A stretch of 64,000 nt of DNA from an uncultured Gammaproteobacteria bacterium. GTDB lineage: Bacteria > Patescibacteriota > Microgenomatia > 2-02-FULL-39-11. A program made the position numbers and the translations under genes. The DNA is taken from contig CAYGXQ010000004.1 of assembly GCA_964354025.1 (NCBI GenBank), positions 10,239 through 74,238 on the forward strand, written 5' to 3'. The notes under the pieces were generated by a model. That model did no database searches, was not told the origin of the DNA, and saw only the letters and a program-made list of their open reading frames with translations. Numbering within the stretch: position 1 is the first letter of the stretch; the number at the start of each line of letters is the position of its first letter. This document shows positions 22,942 to 32,647 of this stretch, in pieces.

Positions 22942-23472
22942 ATGGATATTACTGACGACCAAAACGAATTGTTTGATATCGTGGATGAGGATGATCAGGT
23001 CATTGGTCAGGCGAGAAGGGGAGAAGTACATAAGGATAAGAAGTTGATCCATCGGAGTGTGAGTATTCTGGTTTTCAATGACTGGGGCGAGTTGTATCTG
23101 CAGAAGCGGTCAGCCACTAAAGACACAGATCCGGGTATATGGACGGTTTCCGCCTCCGGTCATGTGGAAGTGGGGGATAATTATGAGGAAACAGCGCATA
23201 GAGAACTACGGGAGGAATTGGGGATCGATATGGAGATTTCTTTTGTTGATAAATTCCTCTGTCGCGCTCCACATGAAACGGAGATGACAGCCATCTTTAA
23301 AGCCTTTCATAACGGTCCTTTTAAGTTAAACAAAGAGGAAATATCCGATGGTAAATTCTTTACCCGTAAAGAGCTAAATGAGGCAGTAAAAAAAGGAGAA
23401 ATTGACTTGAGTTTTATGGGAAGGCAGGTTTTGGAAAGAGTGGGGTGGATTTTAGGGCGAATTCCAAAATAA
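22942..23472 (+). CDS. NUDIX hydrolase
   Basis: GHVEVGDNYEETAHRELREELGI matches the Nudix box GX5EX7REUXEEXGU. Confidence 0.75.
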   Translation: MDITDDQNELFDIVDEDDQVIGQARRGEVHKDKKLIHRSVSILVFNDWGELYLQKRSATKDTDPGIWTVSASGHVEVGDNYEETAHRELREELGIDMEISFVDKFLCRAPHETEMTAIFKAFHNGPFKLNKEEISDGKFFTRKELNEAVKKGEIDLSFMGRQVLERVGWILGRIPK

Positions 23473-24624
23473 CATCTGCATTTTGGATTCGCCACAAAGG
23501 GCCGCAATCCTAAATAATTGTAAACATTATTTAGGAGCGAGCCCTTAGAGCAACTTTTTAATTTCCGAAATTGTCGATCTTTGTTTTGTCTGCAATTCCC
23601 TGATTTTTTTTACCCGTTCAATCATCGAAGGGTCAAATAACTGGTAACCGCCTTTGGTGAAACCCGCAACCGGTAATAATCCCTCTTTTGTCCAATACCT
23701 GATGGTATGGATTGTTTCATTGGTTGCCTTTGCCAATTCCCCGATTTTGAGGGAGGATTTCTCAGGTGAAAACTTTTTCAGGACCGGCTGTTTTTCTTCG
23801 ACAGCCCTGGTGAACATATCAAGAGAATTTTCAACTGCTTTTTCAATGAAAGCGTAGAAGGGTTGAAGATCATTTTTGGTTTGTCCGGTAAAAATAGCGT
23901 CAAGATATTGGGTGCGTTCTTCGTTTTTTATGATGGCCATGGGATACCCGTTTAAAAGCAAAATAAGATTCATCAGAAGCCTGGCTGTCCTTCCATTACC
24001 GTCAACGAACGGATGGATAGATACCAACTTAAAATGAGCATCGGCGGCAATTCTGACGGGATGATTTTCCTGTTGTCCTTCCAGCCAGCGGAAAAAGTCT
24101 TTCATCAGTGGCGGTACCTGACGGGGGAGGGGAAATTCAGTGTCAACACCCCGGATAAAAATTTCCGTTGCCCGATACCGGCCGGCCCAAAGATCATTGA
24201 TGCGGGTTAGAATAATTTTATGGATTGCCAATACATCAGCTTCGGAAATATATTGATGTCCCTTCAGTTTTGTGGAAAGCTCTTTGATGTAATCGACTGC
24301 TTGCGCGTGATTAATCGCCTCCAATTGATCTTGGAGCGGCTTGCCGCTGATAACCGCAGTGACACCTCTTTCGATCACTTCCGCAGTCTCAAGGCGGGAG
24401 AGGGTATTGCCTTCAATGGCATTTGAAGAATAAGTCAGTTCAACCTTTAGCCATTCCTCAAGGTTTTTGATCAGTTCAGGCGGCAACGGTCTGTATTTAT
24501 CCAATTGCCGTTTTTTCTCCGTCAGGATTTTTAATAGGCTGTCCATACCTAGAAGTATAAAGCAATGCTTTATGGTTGTCAAGTTATTGATGGGAAGAAA
24601 GGTTTTGGAGAGGGTGGGGTGGAT
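23416..24624 (+). mobile_element. putative integrated cargo islet 2 at the NUDIX gene 3' end, bounded by a ~35-bp imperfect direct repeat
   Basis: ATGGGAAGGCAGGTTTTGGAAAGAGTGGGGTGGAT (23416-23450, end of the nudix CDS) recurs as ATGGGAAGAAAGGTTTTGGAGAGGGTGGGGTGGAT at 24590-24624. The only gene between the copies is Fic-MerR. Confidence 0.45.
23545..24582 (-). CDS. Fic-family AMPylation protein fused to a MerR-type HTH
   Basis: HPFVDGNGRTARLLMN matches the Fic motif HPFx(D/E)GNGRxxR. The C-terminal IGELAKATNETIHTIRYWTKEGLL is a MerR-like HTH. Confidence 0.8.
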   Translation of the reverse strand: MTTIKHCFILLGMDSLLKILTEKKRQLDKYRPLPPELIKNLEEWLKVELTYSSNAIEGNTLSRLETAEVIERGVTAVISGKPLQDQLEAINHAQAVDYIKELSTKLKGHQYISEADVLAIHKIILTRINDLWAGRYRATEIFIRGVDTEFPLPRQVPPLMKDFFRWLEGQQENHPVRIAADAHFKLVSIHPFVDGNGRTARLLMNLILLLNGYPMAIIKNEERTQYLDAIFTGQTKNDLQPFYAFIEKAVENSLDMFTRAVEEKQPVLKKFSPEKSSLKIGELAKATNETIHTIRYWTKEGLLPVAGFTKGGYQLFDPSMIERVKKIRELQTKQRSTISEIKKLL

Positions 24625-24628
24625 AAAA

Positions 24629-26020
24629 TTAGCGAATGCCGTATTTGATTAAACGTTTGGCTTCGATCCGCAGGACTTCCGGAATCAGAGCTTTGTAGAC
24701 ACTGCAATACGGTGAAGAGGTATCATACCGCCCTTTTTGTTGATAGGTAAGTAAGGGGCAGCCGCCACCACAAAGGTATTTCCACTGACAATTCTTACAA
24801 GGAGTTTTACCTAATACAGTCAAACCAATTGGTCTGACAAAATTACCTTTTATCATTGTCTCCATCAAATCAGGATCATCAATAGAGCCGATCGGTTTCT
24901 CCAAAGTCATCTGACAGCTTGATAGCTTTCCCTGATGGTTAATGACCAGATAACCGTAGCCCATGCCGCAGGGATGAAAATGGGGTTTGCTGAAATTTAC
25001 CCGGTCCAAAAGACTGTCCATCACCGGATATTCAGGCGGATTGTCATAAAGATATTGATAGGCTTTTTTTAATTTTTTAACTAACTTTTTATCATTGCCT
25101 TCCAATTCTTCGGTAACATAAGGATTTTCACGATAGAAATTAAAAGCAAAATGGATCTTCCGGTCAAGCAAATATTTCGTCAACTCGGGAATTCCGTCAA
25201 TGTTTTTGGATGAAATAGTCACGGAGACATTAAAAGGAACTTTAGCTTTTATTAAATTATTTATCCCTTTTATCACCAGATCAAAACTGCCAATACCAGA
25301 AGGAAATATTCTTGTCCGGTCGTGAAATTTTTTCAAACCGTCAAGAGAAACTGCCGCCCGAAGGTTATTCTCTTTTAATATTATAGCCACTTTCTCATTA
25401 ATCAGGATGCCATTGGTCAAAACGACAAAATCAGTTTTGATGCCGTATTTCTTGCTTAAACTTTTAGCCTGTTTGACAAGTGTGAGAATCATCGGCAGTT
25501 CCAAAAGAGCTTCTCCGCCGGAGAATTTCAGGGCAACTTTTTCAATCCCGTGTTTTTTGGCAGACAGGTATACTTGATCAATGGCTTTCTTGCCGACTGC
25601 CGGACTCATCTTCTCTACGGTTTTGCGGACATAACAATAAGTGCAACGCAAATTACACTGGTTGATGATATGCAGCCAAACGCTGATGATTTTGGGTTTT
25701 TTGGCTGATAATTCCAGCAGGGTCTTGGGTTTACCGAAATAAATGATTTCTGAAGCGTATAAATCTTTGAAAGTCTGTTTAATGACGGAAAACTTGATTT
25801 TGGGAACTTGTTTTTGAGCTGACTGCCAAATATCCTCAAGCGTCTTTTTCCCGTCTATCAAAGAGTACAAAAAAGCGGCATCCTTATTTAAGACAACTAA
25901 ACCTTTTTCCGAAAGAGGAGCGTAAACCAATAAAAAACCCTCCACTTTATCCGTATAAGTCTCCGGATAAAAGCAAGGGACAGAAGAAGCGGTTAAATCA
26001 GAGTTTAAACTCATCCGCAT
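24629..26020 (-). CDS. radical SAM/SPASM maturase with N-terminal PqqD-like RRE
   Basis: CNLRCTYCY (CxxxCxxC) and GGEALL (SAM glycine motif). A C-terminal CKNCQWKYLCGGGC (Cx2Cx5Cx3C SPASM) follows, and the first ~100 aa (GLVVLNKDAAFLYSLIDGKKTLEDIW…) resemble a RiPP recognition element. Confidence 0.8.
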   Translation of the reverse strand: MRMSLNSDLTASSVPCFYPETYTDKVEGFLLVYAPLSEKGLVVLNKDAAFLYSLIDGKKTLEDIWQSAQKQVPKIKFSVIKQTFKDLYASEIIYFGKPKTLLELSAKKPKIISVWLHIINQCNLRCTYCYVRKTVEKMSPAVGKKAIDQVYLSAKKHGIEKVALKFSGGEALLELPMILTLVKQAKSLSKKYGIKTDFVVLTNGILINEKVAIILKENNLRAAVSLDGLKKFHDRTRIFPSGIGSFDLVIKGINNLIKAKVPFNVSVTISSKNIDGIPELTKYLLDRKIHFAFNFYRENPYVTEELEGNDKKLVKKLKKAYQYLYDNPPEYPVMDSLLDRVNFSKPHFHPCGMGYGYLVINHQGKLSSCQMTLEKPIGSIDDPDLMETMIKGNFVRPIGLTVLGKTPCKNCQWKYLCGGGCPLLTYQQKGRYDTSSPYCSVYKALIPEVLRIEAKRLIKYGIR

Positions 26021-26202
26021 GCGCAGTCATTGAGTGGTTTAAATGGTTCTTGTCCAACTCCTGGCTGATAAATGACACCTGATCGTGATGATATAGAAAG
26101 TCTATTTTCTATACCAGGTTTAGCCAGACCAAGTCTTGACAAACCCAATGTTGATCGTCCATCTCCGAGCGGTCGATGTCCTTCACATAATGCTACTGGC
26201 AT
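26011..26202 (-). CDS. candidate RiPP precursor peptide (63 aa, C-terminal NDCACG)
   Basis: Small ORF MPVALCEGHRPLGDGRSTLGLSRLGLAKPGIENRLSISSRSGVIYQPGVGQEPFKPLNDCACG. Its stop overlaps the start of the rSAM gene. A strong SD (AAGGAGGTGA) lies 13-15 nt upstream of its ATG. Confidence 0.3.
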   Translation of the reverse strand: MPVALCEGHRPLGDGRSTLGLSRLGLAKPGIENRLSISSRSGVIYQPGVGQEPFKPLNDCACG

Positions 26203-26339
26203 ATCAAATCAGCTTCACCTCCTTAATAATTTTAGTTTGGATTATTGTATCTTACTATATAATGTTTGGGACAGTCAATACTTGCATGCCACAAAAACCT
26301 ATAGTATAATAAACCCTCAAATTTCTGCCTCACAAAAAT

Positions 26340-29300
26340 ATGCCTATAGAGCGTATTCATGTTCAAAATGGCGATAGATCTACCAGAGTTGCCTTACCCG
26401 GAGGTATTGGTCTTAGGGGATTGACCGTGGGTGATACTCCTGATGTTGTCAGAATTTTGTCTGATCCTGATAATAGCAAGTACATGAATTTAACTTTTGA
26501 TCCTGCTGACCAAAATGCGGTACAAGGTTGGATAAGAGAGGTTGGAAACAGAGGTCTATATTTTGCTATTGAAAGAAAAAATAGACATGGCCCTTGTCAG
26601 GTGGTTGGCCATGTTGGATTAAAGCCCAGTGTATCTAACCAAGCCCAGGCTGAAATCGGAATTGTTTTGGATCATGACGAGCAAGAACGGGGAACAGCCA
26701 TGCAGGCGGTCTTGGCCGCTTTGCATATCGCAGACCGCTGCGGCATCACAACAGTACAAGCTCGAATCCATCCAGGAAATCACCGGAGCAGAAGACTATT
26801 CCGTCGTCTTGCCGGCTCGGAACATATGGGCACTGACGGATGCATCGTTGTTTCTCTTGACAGGCTGAAAAGATTAAAAAGCGGTTTTGATGGTTTATTT
26901 GACGAAGGCAGAAAATGGTTTTCCCACCAATTGGAAACGATTCCGTATCAGTCGCTCGACAGTTTTATCAGGCATTGGTTGGAAAATCTCTCGGAGGCAA
27001 TTCCTCAAGATGTACTACTGCAATATTGGGCTAAAACTGATCCTTCAAACGAGGTTCGCCAATTGGCTGACCAGGCCAAAGCAGGTGAACATCTGCCAAT
27101 TTCTCATTTCTGGTGGCAGCGTACAGTGGTGGAGACAGTGCTAAATTTAGACCCTCTGACAATTGAATATCTAAAACCGGAGACGATGAAACTCGCGGCG
27201 GAAAATTTTTTTGCCAATCCTTTAACCGCAAAAGAAGAGATCATAAAACTCGCTGATAAAACAACTAAAGAAGTGACGTGGGAACCTGTTGCCCATCTCA
27301 AATCAAATACAATTTTTAATGCCTGCTGTGCAGGATTATCCGAAGCCATGTCCAGAAGAGATCTGTCTCATGGATTTAACTCCGCACAAATGGGTTTTGA
27401 GATGGAAAACTACCGGACTTTTTTTATAAAAGTATTAGCAGATATCCGGGAACGAGCCACATTCTATGATACCCGTTTGCCTTACCAGAATATAGTGAGC
27501 ATTTGTGATGCTTTGGGGCTTTCTGAAACCGTGACAGGACTAAGTTGTGAACAACTGCGTTTTGTCTTGCCCTTATTTTGCCGGTATCTGGAGCTTTATA
27601 TTGCCAGCGCCACCTTGCTACCCAGAGGATACAACTTCGATAAAACTGATATGAGATTGAACTTGAAATATCTACTTGAGAGACATTTGAATTATCTTCG
27701 TCAACAGGCAGAAAACCATACAGAGGCATATGACCTGAATGAATTGCGCCAATTGGTTGATCCGGAAAAATTCCCTGAAATAACCGGCATCGTTGATGAT
27801 AAATTTTCACCCGGAGAAACCTTTTGGGCAGAATTGGCAAAAAAGGATACAGTTTCTATTCTTTCCCGGGAAACTTATCACGATACTCTTTGTTTCCAAT
27901 TGGAAAGGGGAGAGAAACAAAAAATTATTTATGTGCCGGTTGGCAACCAGTTATATCTTTCCGCGGCACTGGTGGCGGTGGAAGATTTTTTGACGCATCC
28001 GGAGGAATATCCAATTGGTTTGCATTTCCATGAATTTCTGGAAACGGTTCCGGCCGGCACCGGTCAAGAGATCAAAGCCCAGAGCGTCGGTGACATTTTA
28101 TATGTAACAACGTTAACAGCACTCCGCTATGCTAATACGGTGGCCGGTTGGCGGGTGCATTTCCGGCATGAAGCAGACCATCTTTGGTTCACCCGCAAAT
28201 ATGCCAAACTTTACCAGATGATTGGATCGCCAACGCACCTTGAAGGATGGCTTTATTACCTTCGCCATCGTTTTGATATGGCACTTTTCCGGCCGGAGAA
28301 TGGCAGATTACCGGTCTTTGGTCCGATGCAGCTTCTGATTGACGACTGGGAAAATTTTTCCGCCGGCAGATGGGGAGAGACTTGCGCCATCTGGTTTTAT
28401 ATTTGCGACAGATTGCGTTCTATTACTCCGGATCCGGTCAGGGATTTGGTAGATTTTTTATACCAACACTACGAAATAAACGGTGTGTTATCAATATTAG
28501 ATGATTTAGATGGAAATACTTTGTACGACAATCAGGAGTATTTTTTTCATATTTTTGCCAGATTTGTTTTTGAGAGACTTGACCGGTCCGGATTAAGTAA
28601 CCCTGAAACGGCTGTTTTGGCAACCGGCAATTTCCCCCTGATCATGATTGAGGCTTTGATGCAAGCGCCGGAAACCGCCTGGACTCAGTTGCCCGGAGTT
28701 AGGCAGCTTTATGGGAAAAAACATGCCGATGAGGTCATACCGGTATTAGAACGATTACGCAAACATCCGGAAGAATGGTATGCCTTGTTATATTTTACCC
28801 TTGAAGATGATTTCAAGCGGTGGAAACAACATGTCGACAAAAGATTAACCGCCATCGTTGATGATCAATTTGTAATTATTGACCCAGAAAGCTTTTCTAA
28901 TCCTGCTCTGAGAAGATTAATACAAATTCAAACTGAGAAGCTTGATGAAGCCGGATTTGACTATTTTAAATACAGAGATACACATCACCCTTTTTTGGTT
29001 GAAGATTTAGGGAGGCGATTGGACCAACAACTGAAGACAGATTTATTTAATAATAGTTTTGAAGGAAATGATGTACGGTTGACCTATTTATTCATGCGCT
29101 ACAAACTGCTGTGGGAATATACCAAACGGACTCATGAATGGAGTTCGGAGCAAATTGAAAGCAGATTGGATTTCTTAGAATCAACTCTCGAAGACATATT
29201 AGCGCATAATCAAACCAAAGGCGTATTTAGAGAATCTCTGGAAAGAACAGCAGAATATATCAGAAGTTGGATTGCCAAAACAAAAGAGGAATTGTCTGTC

Positions 29301-30266
29301 TATGAGATGAAATCGGTTGCCCCGGCCGGTAGTTTGGAGGCAAAAAGATCATCTGTTATCAAAGCTGAACCGGTGACTTCGGAGAAAAGAGCGCGGGTGG
29401 TAGATGTTCTAAAAGAAGCCAAAACTATCGGTAATTTCACTTGCGAAAAACAATTAATGTCATTTGCCACTAACAACGGCGGTGAATTATTTTTGTTTGA
29501 AGCCGCTGGTCAACAAAGGCTGGTTTTAAGAAGAGAGACGCCAATCCCGCAAGCGAGAATTATGTTTTCTCAAACTCAAAGGGATGAAGAATTAGTTAGT
29601 TGGTTAATAAGGAATTGGGGTGCAGAGTATATAGCATATACTTTATTAGCGGAACCGATCGATGGTATGGGAGAGCCGGCATTGAGAGAGGATCTGGTTG
29701 GTTATTTACCGGAAATTGCTTTAATGACCAATCCGGAAGTTGAACATAGTTTCCGCAGAGCTCTAAAAGCTCATCAGGGCTTGAAATATTATCCGTTATC
29801 CGGAAGTGATGAAGAGAAAGTAACTATTATGAGGTTATTTGATTTTTGGGATAGACAAGGGGCCAATCAACCTATTCCAATGTCGACAGCGATGGACAGA
29901 CGGTTTCTGGATATGTATTGGGGTGATTCGGATGTTTGGGGTGGACTGGCGATGATCGGCAAGCAGGCAGTTGGAGTGGAACTGGGAGCGCCGCATAGCG
30001 TCAGGCCTGATTATGCAACCGGGATAGTTTTAAAAACTGATCATCGATATATTGGCATCGGGACCTTTCTGCAGGTTGAAAGGGCAAAATTATTAGTTGA
30101 GCGAGGCTTTCGATATTTATGCTTTGGAGATCCCGGAACTACTCCAAAGCAATATCTCAATAAGAAACCGTTTTTAATACCAGGGGGTAAGGTAAATGTG
30201 TCTTATTCGTATAAACTTAAAGGACCGGAATTAGGGAATGAATTCCTGAAAGATTTTTATAGATAA
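26340..30266 (+). CDS. giant (1308 aa) protein with N-terminal GNAT acetyltransferase domain and C-terminal GNAT-like domain
   Basis: The N-terminal ~170 aa (…AEIGIVLDHDEQERGTAMQAVLAALHIADRCGITTVQARIHPGNHRSRRLFRRLAG) show a RimL/Acetyltransf_3-like pattern. The C-terminal …GIVLKTDHRYIGIGTFLQVERAKLLVERGFRYLCFGD is also GNAT-like. The middle ~950 aa is Trp/aromatic-rich with no match I recognise. Confidence 0.5.
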   Translation: MPIERIHVQNGDRSTRVALPGGIGLRGLTVGDTPDVVRILSDPDNSKYMNLTFDPADQNAVQGWIREVGNRGLYFAIERKNRHGPCQVVGHVGLKPSVSNQAQAEIGIVLDHDEQERGTAMQAVLAALHIADRCGITTVQARIHPGNHRSRRLFRRLAGSEHMGTDGCIVVSLDRLKRLKSGFDGLFDEGRKWFSHQLETIPYQSLDSFIRHWLENLSEAIPQDVLLQYWAKTDPSNEVRQLADQAKAGEHLPISHFWWQRTVVETVLNLDPLTIEYLKPETMKLAAENFFANPLTAKEEIIKLADKTTKEVTWEPVAHLKSNTIFNACCAGLSEAMSRRDLSHGFNSAQMGFEMENYRTFFIKVLADIRERATFYDTRLPYQNIVSICDALGLSETVTGLSCEQLRFVLPLFCRYLELYIASATLLPRGYNFDKTDMRLNLKYLLERHLNYLRQQAENHTEAYDLNELRQLVDPEKFPEITGIVDDKFSPGETFWAELAKKDTVSILSRETYHDTLCFQLERGEKQKIIYVPVGNQLYLSAALVAVEDFLTHPEEYPIGLHFHEFLETVPAGTGQEIKAQSVGDILYVTTLTALRYANTVAGWRVHFRHEADHLWFTRKYAKLYQMIGSPTHLEGWLYYLRHRFDMALFRPENGRLPVFGPMQLLIDDWENFSAGRWGETCAIWFYICDRLRSITPDPVRDLVDFLYQHYEINGVLSILDDLDGNTLYDNQEYFFHIFARFVFERLDRSGLSNPETAVLATGNFPLIMIEALMQAPETAWTQLPGVRQLYGKKHADEVIPVLERLRKHPEEWYALLYFTLEDDFKRWKQHVDKRLTAIVDDQFVIIDPESFSNPALRRLIQIQTEKLDEAGFDYFKYRDTHHPFLVEDLGRRLDQQLKTDLFNNSFEGNDVRLTYLFMRYKLLWEYTKRTHEWSSEQIESRLDFLESTLEDILAHNQTKGVFRESLERTAEYIRSWIAKTKEELSVYEMKSVAPAGSLEAKRSSVIKAEPVTSEKRARVVDVLKEAKTIGNFTCEKQLMSFATNNGGELFLFEAAGQQRLVLRRETPIPQARIMFSQTQRDEELVSWLIRNWGAEYIAYTLLAEPIDGMGEPALREDLVGYLPEIALMTNPEVEHSFRRALKAHQGLKYYPLSGSDEEKVTIMRLFDFWDRQGANQPIPMSTAMDRRFLDMYWGDSDVWGGLAMIGKQAVGVELGAPHSVRPDYATGIVLKTDHRYIGIGTFLQVERAKLLVERGFRYLCFGDPGTTPKQYLNKKPFLIPGGKVNVSYSYKLKGPELGNEFLKDFYR

Positions 30267-30454: not shown

Positions 30455-30483
30455 ATTCCTCCCGATTAAATCGGGACAGGAAT
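30455..30483 (+). promoter_or_regulatory. near-perfect 13-bp-stem hairpin overlapping the gdhA SD/start codon
   Basis: ATTCCTCCCGATTAAATCGGGACAGGAAT contains AGGAATG, with the annotated ATG at 30482. A sister copy TCCCGATTAAATCGGGAC lies at 30363-30380. Confidence 0.4.
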
Positions 30484-31813
30484 GACAATTATTAATATGA
30501 CTACAAAAATCAATCCTTTCGAAAACGCCATGGGGCAGTTAGAAAAAGCTTTAAAATATCTGAAACTGGAGAAATGGCAGATCGACCGTTTGAGAAACCC
30601 CGAAAAAATTATTTCCGTCAATTTTCCCGTCAAAATGGACAATGGTGAAACCAAGATTTTCCACGGATTTAGGGTACAACACAACAGTGCTCGAGGCCCA
30701 TACAAAGGTGGCATCCGTTATCATCCGCAAGTCGATATGGATGAGGTGAAGGCGCTGGCTTTCTGGATGGCGATCAAATGCGCGGTGGCAGATATCCCGA
30801 TGGGTGGAGGTAAAGGCGGGATCGAGGTTGACCCGAAAATTTTGTCGGAAAGCGAATTGGAAAGATTGAGTCGGGCTTATGCCAAGGCAATTTCGGCTGA
30901 CATCGGTCCTTATAAAGACGTACCGGCGCCGGATGTGAATACGACCCCGCAGATTATGAAGTGGATGGTTGACGAGTATATTAAAGATCAAAAATCAAAG
31001 ATCAAAAACATTAAGAAGAAAGAAATAAGCAAACTAATGGGGACGTTTACAGGGAAGCCGGTGGACTATGGTGGAAGTCTTGGAAGAACTGAAGCGACAG
31101 GTAGGGGAGGATCATATGTTTTGGAAGCATTACTTGCGAGAATGAAACTCAAGGGGCGGTACGGGAAAGAACTGACGGTAGCTGTCCAGGGATTTGGTAA
31201 TGTCGGTTTTTATATTGCTAAATTTTTACGCGAGATGGGGATGAGGATAGTGGCTCTCTCCGACTCCAAGGGAGCAATTGTCGTCAAAAACATAGAGAAG
31301 GACGGTTTCAATCCGGATTTGGTCTTGAAATGCAAGAAAGAGAAAGGGGAACTTTCAAGCTGTTATTGCGTTGGTTCTGTTTGTGACTTGTCTTTTGGAA
31401 AAACACTGACCAATGAAGAACTTCTGGAATTGCCGGTGGATATTCTGGTACCATCAGCTTTGGAAAACCAGATTACCGGAAAAAATGCCGGTAGGATAAA
31501 AGCCAAGGCGATTCTTGAGATGGCCAATGGACCAACAACTCCGGAAGCAGACGTGATTTTGCATAAGAGTGGAATTCCGGTTGTGCCGGATGTTTTGTCC
31601 AATTCAGGCGGAGTAACCGTTTCCTGTTTTGAGTGGGAACAGAATCTGAAAGCCCAACATTGGACGGAAAAAGCGGTGAATGCCAAATTGAAACAGAAGA
31701 TGGTGAAGGCTCTTGAAATGGTTTGGGAAACCTCAAAACGGGAAAAAACGGATTTGCGGACAGCCGCCTTCATCGTCGCTATAAGAAGAATTATGGATAA
31801 AACAAGGGGTTGA
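30482..31813 (+). CDS. gdhA: Glu/Leu/Phe/Val-type glutamate dehydrogenase
   Basis: KGGIRYHP…MGGGKGGI (substrate/Lys motif) and a C-terminal NAD(P) Rossmann GFGNVG. Carries an in-frame KDQKSKIKNIKKKEISK low-complexity insertion. The true start may be the second ATG at 30497. Confidence 0.85.
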   Translation: MTIINMTTKINPFENAMGQLEKALKYLKLEKWQIDRLRNPEKIISVNFPVKMDNGETKIFHGFRVQHNSARGPYKGGIRYHPQVDMDEVKALAFWMAIKCAVADIPMGGGKGGIEVDPKILSESELERLSRAYAKAISADIGPYKDVPAPDVNTTPQIMKWMVDEYIKDQKSKIKNIKKKEISKLMGTFTGKPVDYGGSLGRTEATGRGGSYVLEALLARMKLKGRYGKELTVAVQGFGNVGFYIAKFLREMGMRIVALSDSKGAIVVKNIEKDGFNPDLVLKCKKEKGELSSCYCVGSVCDLSFGKTLTNEELLELPVDILVPSALENQITGKNAGRIKAKAILEMANGPTTPEADVILHKSGIPVVPDVLSNSGGVTVSCFEWEQNLKAQHWTEKAVNAKLKQKMVKALEMVWETSKREKTDLRTAAFIVAIRRIMDKTRG

Positions 31814-31885
31814 CAAGAAGCTTTTAGTCTGGTATTTTTAGTAAACTTTATACATTATTATATAGGTTTAATAAGGAGATTAATT

Positions 31886-32647
31886 ATGCCTGAGGAAAAA
31901 ACTTCTGCCAAGAATAATTATTTAAAATATGGATTGATTGGTCTTTTGGTGGTTGCCGCTTTTGCTATTGGTAGCCTTTATACCAAAGTCCAGACTCTTG
32001 AAAAAGGTGGAAAAGTAGCTGGAGTTCAGGAGGGCCAGCCGACCCAACCGGCGAAAGTAGATGTCAAAGTAACTGACGATGATCCGCAAAAAGGTCCGAA
32101 AAATGCTAAAGTAACGGTCGTGAATTTTTCCGATTTCCAGTGTCCTTTTTGTGGCGCATATTCGGGGCACAATACCGAGCTGGTAAAAACTATGCAGCAA
32201 AGGGATGCTTCTTGGCAGGCGGCAGAGACCAATATTTTGAAGGAATACGTTGACAGCGGTAAAGCCAGATTTGTCTGGAAAGATTATCCTTTCCTTGGGC
32301 AGGAATCTATGGACGCGGCCGCAGCCGCCCGTTGTGCTCAGGACCAGGGAAAATTCTGGGAGTATCATGATTATCTTTTTGGAAACCAAAAAGGGGAGAA
32401 TCAGGGGCAGTTTTCCAAAGAGAATCTGAAGAAATTTGCGGCAACTTTGAAGTTGAACACCAAAGACTTCAATAATTGCGTCGATAGCGACAAGTATGCC
32501 AATAAAGTCAAAGACGCTATCGCTTACGGGCAAAGCGTTGGCGTCTCTGGTACGCCGGCTACCTTCGTCAATGGCAACTTAATCTCCGGAGCGGCTCCTT
32601 TTGCCACTTTTAAGGCGGCGATAGAAGAGGAATTGAAGAAAAAATAA
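31886..32647 (+). CDS. DsbA-family thiol:disulfide oxidoreductase (membrane-anchored)
   Basis: N-terminal TM, then FSDFQCPFCGAY (CPFC thioredoxin-fold active site). Confidence 0.7.
   Translation: MPEEKTSAKNNYLKYGLIGLLVVAAFAIGSLYTKVQTLEKGGKVAGVQEGQPTQPAKVDVKVTDDDPQKGPKNAKVTVVNFSDFQCPFCGAYSGHNTELVKTMQQRDASWQAAETNILKEYVDSGKARFVWKDYPFLGQESMDAAAAARCAQDQGKFWEYHDYLFGNQKGENQGQFSKENLKKFAATLKLNTKDFNNCVDSDKYANKVKDAIAYGQSVGVSGTPATFVNGNLISGAAPFATFKAAIEEELKKK

Follow-up and report, generated by a model that had tools for sequence, protein, structure and literature searches.

A DCAC peptide and its radical SAM-SPASM enzyme as a probable precursor-maturase pair of an unnamed family in a Patescibacteria contig

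Among described systems, the ranthipeptide pair SCIFF/CteB (thermocellin) is a minimal two-gene cassette of a Cys-rich peptide and its maturase that lies in housekeeping surroundings and lacks a protease or exporter of its own. The maturase joins a RiPP (a peptide synthesized on the ribosome and modified after translation) recognition element (RRE) to a radical S-adenosylmethionine (rSAM) domain and a SPASM domain. We identified the same kind of cassette and, by predicted fold, the same enzyme architecture in a 64,000-nucleotide stretch (the window, meaning this stretch at its full length) of contig CAYGXQ010000004.1 from assembly GCA_964354025.1, where a 63-aa open reading frame (ORF) ending in NDCACG overlaps the start of the gene for a 463-aa enzyme. 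CteB was the best match of this enzyme among solved structures, both by sequence and by fold. The systems differ in their peptides, with a six-Cys pattern in SCIFF and 1 to 5 copies of D-C-A-C in the family of the window, and in their hosts, which are Clostridia for SCIFF and Patescibacteria and Chloroflexota for the window's family.

Three further thioether systems offer comparisons. PapB, the maturase of PapA (freyrasin), was the top NCBIfam match of the Patescibacteria, Chloroflexota, and Lentzea members tested. Both cores consist of repeated short units with Cys and Asp, those of PapA being C-x3-D, whereas in the D-C-A-C of the window's family Asp lies upstream of Cys. The PapB model match also covers only residues 111-430 of the enzyme, beginning after the RRE domain. 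PapB forms thioethers from Cys sulfur to the β-carbon of Asp, with the Cys held on an auxiliary cluster (PMC10177961, PMC9389541). The streptococcal NxxC RaS-RiPP pair NxxcA/NxxcB, compared by description, has the same [D/N]-x-x-C geometry; NxxcB links Cys to the β-carbon of Asn in NxxC motifs, and Asp is tolerated there (PMC9389541). In the window's family the two middle positions are set as Cys followed by Ala or Asp, the hosts are different, and the loci bear no sign of the streptococcal quorum-sensing operon context. QhpD, the maturase of QhpC, is likewise an rSAM-SPASM enzyme and was among the top 5 model matches. It forms thioethers from Cys to Asp or Glu within a small polypeptide, rich in Cys and Asp, that is kept in the cell as a subunit of an enzyme; near the window's locus there are no amine dehydrogenase genes.

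A presumed core carried within the modifying enzyme, as in the Chloroflexota and actinomycete relatives described below, has a parallel in the OphMA-type borosins, and split as well as fused versions exist. In borosins, the enzyme is a methyltransferase and the core is at its C-terminus, whereas the window's own locus is of the split form. Our literature search found no description of the enzyme family or of the DCAC motif.

The gene pair and the enzyme

The small ORF and the enzyme gene very probably form a precursor-maturase pair, and the locus probably belongs to an unnamed precursor-maturase family of ranthipeptide-like rSAM-SPASM RiPPs. The pair has the following features:

24629..26020, minus strand: predicted RRE-rSAM-SPASM peptide maturase, 463 aa (motifs, Pfam/NCBIfam, AlphaFold2 [AF2] model, CteB match)
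25721..25987, minus strand: predicted N-terminal winged-helix (RRE/PqqD-like) domain, about residues 12-100 (AF2 fold, sub-threshold Pfam PqqD)
25634..25657, minus strand: CX3CX2C (C122, C126, C129) for the SAM-binding [4Fe-4S] cluster (invariant in 32 sequences)
24704..24970, minus strand: SPASM domain with Cys C351, C369, C408, C411, C417, C421, and C439 (invariant alignment columns)
26011..26202, minus strand: putative precursor-peptide ORF, 63 aa, MPVALCEG...PFKPLNDCACG and stop (ORF finding)
26017..26028, minus strand: DCAC core motif, the proposed modification site (single occurrence in the window; family-wide motif)
26215..26224, minus strand: Shine-Dalgarno box AAGGAGGTGA (sequence; identical in the relative L161)
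26249..26278, minus strand: promoter-like site TTGACT-18-TAAGAT (9/12 matches), a weak candidate

The initial annotation of this stretch, made from the sequence, had proposed an rSAM gene coupled to a small ORF as a candidate RiPP locus, and ORF finding recovered the 463-aa and the 63-aa frames exactly where it had placed them. As it had also stated, the stop codon of the small ORF overlaps a start of the rSAM gene: the TGA is shared with the second rSAM ATG (ATGA), and the first rSAM ATG (26020) falls within the small ORF by 10 nt. In the relative L161 (90% identical) the first ATG alone is present, which makes an overlap of 10-16 nt the apparently conserved arrangement; the database gene call of the enzyme (P0001) begins at the second ATG, 26014. 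The GGAGG of AAGGAGGTGA ends 15 nt upstream of the small-ORF ATG, and the same box was identified about 8-15 nt 5' of the peptide ORFs in most related loci (L162, L163, L166, L168-L170, L081, and L003). Across the six reading frames of the 64-kb window, DCAC occurs exactly once, at the terminus of the small ORF. The 63-aa ORF is missing from the recorded gene calls of an identical Logan-assembled copy of this stretch, and its peptide matched no NCBIfam model. Rfam gave no match over 23000-27000, and the promoter and terminator scan found 10 promoter-like sites in the region against a shuffled expectation of 6.7 +/- 2.5, which is no excess.

The enzyme carries CNLRCTYCY at residues 122-130 and GGE at residues 168-170, both invariant in 32 homologues, as is its seven-Cys SPASM pattern (C351-x12-G364-x4-C369, C408-x2-C411-x5-C417-x3-C421, and C439); the initial annotation had read all three motifs correctly. 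Pfam Radical_SAM scored 55.3 bits against a cut-off of 29.5, and Pfam SPASM was marginal (20.8 bits vs 21.5). An AF2 model built from the 32-sequence alignment reached a mean pLDDT (predicted local distance difference test) of 91 and predicts an N-terminal domain with strands at 15-17, 22-26, 29-33, and 42-44, followed by helices at 46-53, 61-71, and 77-89. Foldseek aligned this model with CteB (5why/5wgg) over 460 columns, N-terminal domain included, and with the anaerobic sulfatase maturase anSME over about 390 columns, the extra N-terminal domain of the window's enzyme being uncovered by the anSME structures. TigE, SuiB, and SkfB were also among the structural neighbours. By sequence, the closest solved structure was again CteB (E 1.5e-23), followed by anSME. 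The PqqD-like N-terminus seen in the initial annotation is supported by the predicted fold, which follows the βββααα order of an RRE, and by the CteB alignment, and its Pfam PqqD (PF05402) score stays below threshold (18.9 bits vs 23.4); PF05402 was matched by 13 of 27 family members (best E 3e-5). The RRE assignment is supported by the modelled fold and is sub-threshold by sequence.

No NCBIfam model reached its cut-off on the enzyme, all matches listed scoring at most 159 bits. The highest was PapB (NF047865; 159.1 bits, cut-off 340), followed by the nif11 rSAM model (130, cut-off 519), QhpD (TIGR03906; 120.7, cut-off 453), SCIFF maturase (TIGR03974; 120.6, cut-off 425), and anaerobic sulfatase maturase (TIGR03942; 112.1, cut-off 349); the MftC and PqqE models were not among the best 25 of 82 matches. 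The enzyme thus falls into no named subfamily, its top matches (PapB, nif11 rSAM, QhpD, SCIFF) are peptide maturases, and the clean fit to a non-RiPP subfamily that the initial annotation had considered was not found, anaerobic sulfatase maturase scoring 112 vs 349 bits. The Chloroflexota and Lentzea relatives are likewise below the cut-offs, with PapB on top (relatives at 116-159 bits). PADLOC returned only generic viperin-like rSAM matches for the enzyme. With no NCBIfam model and no paper found to cover it, the family marks an annotation gap.

The DCAC motif across relatives

We identified more than 100 homologues of the enzyme at 45-90% identity, of which the few with a source name belong to Patescibacteria (Microgenomates, Roizmanbacteria, Beckwithbacteria). 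Homologues at 31-41% identity were found in Chloroflexota, Wirthbacteria, and 2 actinomycetes (Lentzea, Umezawaea). A metagenome scan for family loci added a few close loci among the matches listed.

We scanned the sense frames from -330 to +75 nt around the enzyme N-terminus for the motif. Of 57 family loci, 51 had [DN]C[AD]C directly 5' of the leader-binding domain, compared with 0/57 on the antisense strand and 0/42 at other rSAM-SPASM loci. Among 81 motif occurrences (some overlapping), both Cys are invariant, position 0 is D in 75 and N in 6, and position +2 is A in 70 and D in 11. When the motif-bearing loci were classified, 36 had the motif fused in frame to the enzyme and 17 had separate ORFs. 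The initial annotation had named the lack of a conserved small ORF beside homologues as a possible outcome; this is false, given the motif in 51/57 loci and its separate ORF in Patescibacteria. More broadly, the comparative data support its reading as a RiPP locus, and none of the findings that it had named as speaking against that reading turned up in them.

In the Patescibacterial loci, an ORF of 34-67 aa with 1-3 DCAC copies lies directly upstream of the rSAM gene on the same strand, and most such ORFs share the N-terminal leader M-x-[LF]-K-x-A-[KQ]-[IV]-I-T-x-E. Examples are the upstream peptides of L162 (MDIKKAKITSEETVKDNTIKIYSQGDCACEDAENNVRSKTHQDCACSIGMGDCACHA), L170 (MSFKNAKVITDETVKQVVKISCECDCACQMNNDCACEAYNDCACAQV), and L166 (MSLQEARIIS...SQCSDCACGLVY). 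A peptide-profile search of a 5.8-billion-protein collection retrieved 22 small proteins, all annotated at most as 'hypothetical protein'; in these, DCAC units recur every 8 residues, up to 5 per protein. The 2 retrieved peptides that were looked up, both found by sequence alone, are encoded immediately upstream of a family rSAM gene.

Directly after the last DCAC, -VY or -LY follows in several peptides (DCACGLVY, DCACAAVY; L165, L166, L168, P0123, P0124, P0126, P0132, and P0135). This tail is absent from the window's peptide, and the L161 peptide ends in GLV. A similar ending, GVY, closes the mycofactocin precursor. In locus L003, a second ...SPASDCACGME frame closed by a stop (1629-1811 and about 1600-1660) follows the first precursor ORF ahead of the rSAM gene, and a further ORF of 60 aa overlaps it; the frame could represent either a second precursor or an assembly frameshift.

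In Chloroflexota, Lentzea, and Umezawaea (L004-L046 and L079), the motif lies in frame, with no intervening stop, within an N-terminal extension of the enzyme. Each of the 36 fused loci has 1-4 motif occurrences (some overlapping), and most of the more distant relatives fetched are of this form. Gene callers predict the fused forms as single proteins, such as P0104 (MGSFSLKNGRLFSQ...QYQCDCACEGG...). The AF2 model of P0104 (pLDDT 90) places residues 1-20 at 86-87, with a strand at 11-13 and then a helix at 14-22, and leaves the linker with CDCAC (residues 25-52) below 56, which fits a mobile core behind a docked recognition segment. A likeness noted by eye between SFNIKDSFVLS of a fused form and the leader MNFKKAKIIT was not supported when a 16-residue leader-only profile was run on the N-termini of 11 fused enzymes and 752 decoys. 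The top decoys in that run were an internal segment of the enzymes themselves, NL(I/Q)KAKVPFNVSVTIT, which we treated as coincidence. The window's enzyme has a segment of this kind, NNLIKAKVPFNVSVTISSKNID (about 25200-25260, minus strand; residues about 255-275), that resembles the canonical leader MNFKKAKVITEETVK; its equivalents in homologues scored as leader-profile decoys at E 0.016-0.5, and the likeness is probably due to chance.

The small ORF of the window is retained in L161 as a 67-aa ORF ending in ...LKLPNDCACGLV, with an in-frame 6-nt indel. The open frame, the Shine-Dalgarno box, the overlap with the enzyme gene, and NDCACG are kept between the two, and the leader sequence is not; a lack of conservation of the ORF, which the initial annotation had allowed for, was therefore not what we found. 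Comparison of the small-ORF codons with L161 gave 38 identical, 3 synonymous, and 22 non-synonymous. In the same comparison, the changes in the rSAM gene number 80 synonymous and 47 non-synonymous, so that, on sequence comparison, the enzyme gene is under purifying selection. A relative with a 65%-identical enzyme has a 67-aa peptide with a canonical N-terminus and the end SDCACGLVY, which indicates that long leaders occur in the window's branch.

Proposed chemistry and its alternatives

We judge, with moderate confidence, that the locus as a whole is best explained as a precursor with its maturase, members of a RiPP-like family not yet described, acting through a DCAC thioether mechanism. In the proposed pathway, translation of the 63-aa peptide would start from a Shine-Dalgarno box of its own and would probably be coupled to that of the overlapping enzyme gene. 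The leader would dock onto the N-terminal winged-helix (RRE) domain, and the C-terminal D-C-A-C core would move into the active site, where one Cys thiolate may bind an auxiliary [4Fe-4S] cluster of the SPASM domain, as a substrate Cys does in PapB and Tte1186 (PMC10177961). The 5'-deoxyadenosyl radical from the CX3CX2C cluster would then abstract a hydrogen atom from a neighbouring residue, and an S-to-C thioether would form. Its likeliest acceptor would be the β-carbon of the Asp or Asn 3 residues upstream, giving a [D/N]-x-x-C ring as with NxxcB, with the second Cys of D-C-A-C left free or used in cluster binding. The adjacent GNAT-type acetyltransferase may, as an optional step, acetylate the product. 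We propose the [D/N]-x-x-C β-thioether because of the conserved Asp/Asn and 2 Cys, the thioether-forming nearest enzymes, and the NxxcB and PapB/Tte1186 precedents; by analogy, D in 75 and N in 6 occurrences at position 0 is the pattern expected of a thioether acceptor. Thioether formation as such falls, on these analogies, a little short of an even chance, and the specific link from the Asp β-carbon to Cys(+3) is a tentative suggestion that is rather unlikely to be right in that exact form.

Several observations weigh against this explanation. The motif was not found within the scanned region in 6 of the 57 family loci. When a profile of 13 canonical peptides was run against all 1877 stop-to-stop segments of the window, the 63-aa ORF ranked second by DCAC alone (E 1.3); its leader gave no detectable match to the canonical-leader profile, so leader homology of the window's peptide is not demonstrable. 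The codon-substitution test against L161 detected no purifying selection on that leader, which by sequence appears to evolve neutrally. The account in the initial annotation had lacked both features, the atypical leader and its apparent neutrality. Its near-perfect Shine-Dalgarno box is present, but the 15-nt spacing to the ATG is long. A substrate tethered to the enzyme, as in the fused homologues, is unusual for rSAM maturases, and no fused N-terminus rose above the decoys in the 16-residue leader-profile test. The enzyme scores under the cut-off of every thioether-maturase model, the loci examined have no conserved protease or exporter near the enzyme and are otherwise of housekeeping context, and the proposed chemistry is argued entirely by analogy.

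The same pair may instead carry out another reaction, such as a sactionine to Ala(+2) or another residue, epimerisation, oxidation, or desaturation of Cys, or a C-terminal C-C bond. The diversity of the SPASM neighbours, which include TigE (cyclopropylglycine), SuiB (C-C cross-link), SkfB (α-thioether), and anSME (Cys oxidation), leaves room for this, as do the absence of any thioether-family model above its cut-off and the several peptides in which the last DCAC is followed by a terminal -VY, -LY, or -V; MftC modifies a C-terminal Val-Tyr. However, Asp/Asn and the 2 Cys are the only universally conserved core residues, thioether formers lead the matches by sequence and by structure, and the window, like many other members, lacks the -VY ending. 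The window's peptide stops one residue past the motif, so the chemistry must fit inside NDCACG. We consider a different reaction possible but unlikely. It is more doubtful still, and in our judgement improbable, that the DCAC segment is an accessory element (a metal or Fe-S CxC handle, or a regulatory or pseudosubstrate tail), acting in cis where fused and in trans where separate, with the substrate elsewhere. The segment does belong to the enzyme polypeptide in 36 of the 53 classified motif-bearing loci, CxC motifs bind metals, and the surroundings have no conserved protease, exporter, or immunity gene. An accessory element would not lead one to expect 1-5 copies at a regular 8-residue period, the leader-like N-terminus common to most free-standing peptides, the conserved Shine-Dalgarno boxes of those peptides, or a dedicated leader-binding domain kept in the enzyme, and borosins provide a precedent for a precursor fused to its modifying enzyme.

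Two readings concern the window's ORF itself. It could be a decaying or non-functional remnant in a family whose pairing is real, the peptide being no longer made or recognised in this lineage; the leader unlike the canonical one, the 3 synonymous against 22 non-synonymous codon changes, and the long Shine-Dalgarno spacing point that way. Yet the 6-nt indel leaves the frame open in both genomes, the window and L161 have an identical Shine-Dalgarno box and NDCACG with the overlap at the enzyme start kept, the enzyme is under purifying selection (80 synonymous, 47 non-synonymous), and the relative with the 65%-identical enzyme has its 67-aa peptide ending in SDCACGLVY. We regard a remnant as very improbable. 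That the small ORF and its motif arose by chance, with the enzyme acting on a protein or a small molecule, has in its favour that the ORF is unannotated and nothing else, and it is contradicted by the comparative data: the 51/57 loci, the single DCAC of the window, the 81 occurrences, and the profile-found peptides beside rSAM genes make it exceedingly improbable.

If the precursor-maturase explanation with thioether chemistry holds, D-C-A-C in 1-5 copies would be a new and easily testable substrate motif for radical SAM thioether chemistry, with the window supplying a minimal single-copy substrate, and the natural split and fused versions would be a useful model for the evolution of leader recognition. 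It is conceivable, although we think it somewhat doubtful, that the DCAC peptide and the enzyme form a widespread and ancient intracellular system rather than an antibiotic cluster, yielding a cross-linked thiol-rich cofactor, metal ligand, or redox element, with the substrate fused N-terminally in most of the more distant lineages. Many Patescibacteria and Chloroflexota lineages would then retain a DCAC system, and to our knowledge its fused form would be the first self-tethered rSAM RiPP maturase. The genomes of Patescibacteria are very small and encode few recognised biosynthetic pathways, so a cassette kept across many of their lineages likely matters to their biology.

Neighbouring genes

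The genes flanking the pair are:

26340..30266, plus strand: 1308-aa protein that begins with a RimJ/RimL-type GNAT domain (residues 24-157, 26409-26810) and continues as an orphan extension of about 1100 aa
23545-24582, minus strand: Fic domain fused to a C-terminal MerR-type helix-turn-helix (PADLOC PDC-S04, SoFic, E 1e-27 to 1e-30)

The initial annotation had reported no adjacent protease or transporter and the presence of a giant GNAT protein and a Fic gene. Both genes are there; the GNAT, which it had listed as a mere neighbour, is not incidental and recurs in the family. The 1308-aa protein, transcribed divergently from the peptide-rSAM pair, is a probable accessory acetyltransferase. 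It matched Pfam Acetyltransf_3 at 67 bits, and its GNAT domain is 26% identical (E 8e-15) to a small GNAT adjoining the rSAM gene of L168. L161 has a 1307-aa orthologue, a 182-aa GNAT overlaps the 3' end of the enzyme gene in L162, convergent GNATs of 144-159 aa were found in L165, L168, and L169, and L170 has a 189-aa GNAT nearby. Seven Chloroflexota loci also have a GNAT, 6 of them of about 140-190 aa and directly upstream. In total, 14 of 59 family loci had a GNAT no more than 3 kb away vs 0 of 42 controls; because family loci supplied the search seeds, the control count is a minimum.

Among 5.8 billion proteins, the extension of about 1100 aa had exactly one homologue, 85% identical and in a sister genome. 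It had no Pfam, NCBIfam, or PADLOC match, and its sole PDB sequence match was insignificant (E 0.08). Chloroflexota and Lentzea loci carry an AAA_16/NACHT-like ATPase of about 1000 aa with TPR repeats, and a comparison of the extension with the Chloroflexota ATPase-TPR proteins found no homology. PADLOC matched neither the 1308-aa protein nor the ATPase-TPR proteins. The fused-form gene is often preceded by a GNAT of about 160 aa and the ATPase-TPR protein of about 1000 aa, and in Lentzea an AfsR/HaaT-like TPR protein follows the fused enzyme gene.

The PADLOC families matched by the Fic-MerR protein are candidate defence families. A strong promoter-like site (TTGACA-17-TATACT, 11/12) overlaps the listed TTG start of its gene, and the true start is probably an ATG about 36 nt downstream, with which a 333-aa gene call on the identical copy of this stretch agrees. 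In L161, an AAA_14 ATPase fragment gene stands in place of the downstream Fic-MerR gene.

In at least 2 unrelated Patescibacterial loci, a Trans_reg_C (OmpR/PhoB-type) protein of 354-416 aa is encoded divergently from the peptide-rSAM pair (L166/L167, 1624-2874, minus strand; L172, 2022-3086, minus strand) and may be a dedicated regulator of the pair. After the giant GNAT gene, genes for a glutamate dehydrogenase and a DsbA/thioredoxin-like protein (30482-32647, plus strand) follow in both the window and L161, a synteny expected between close relatives.

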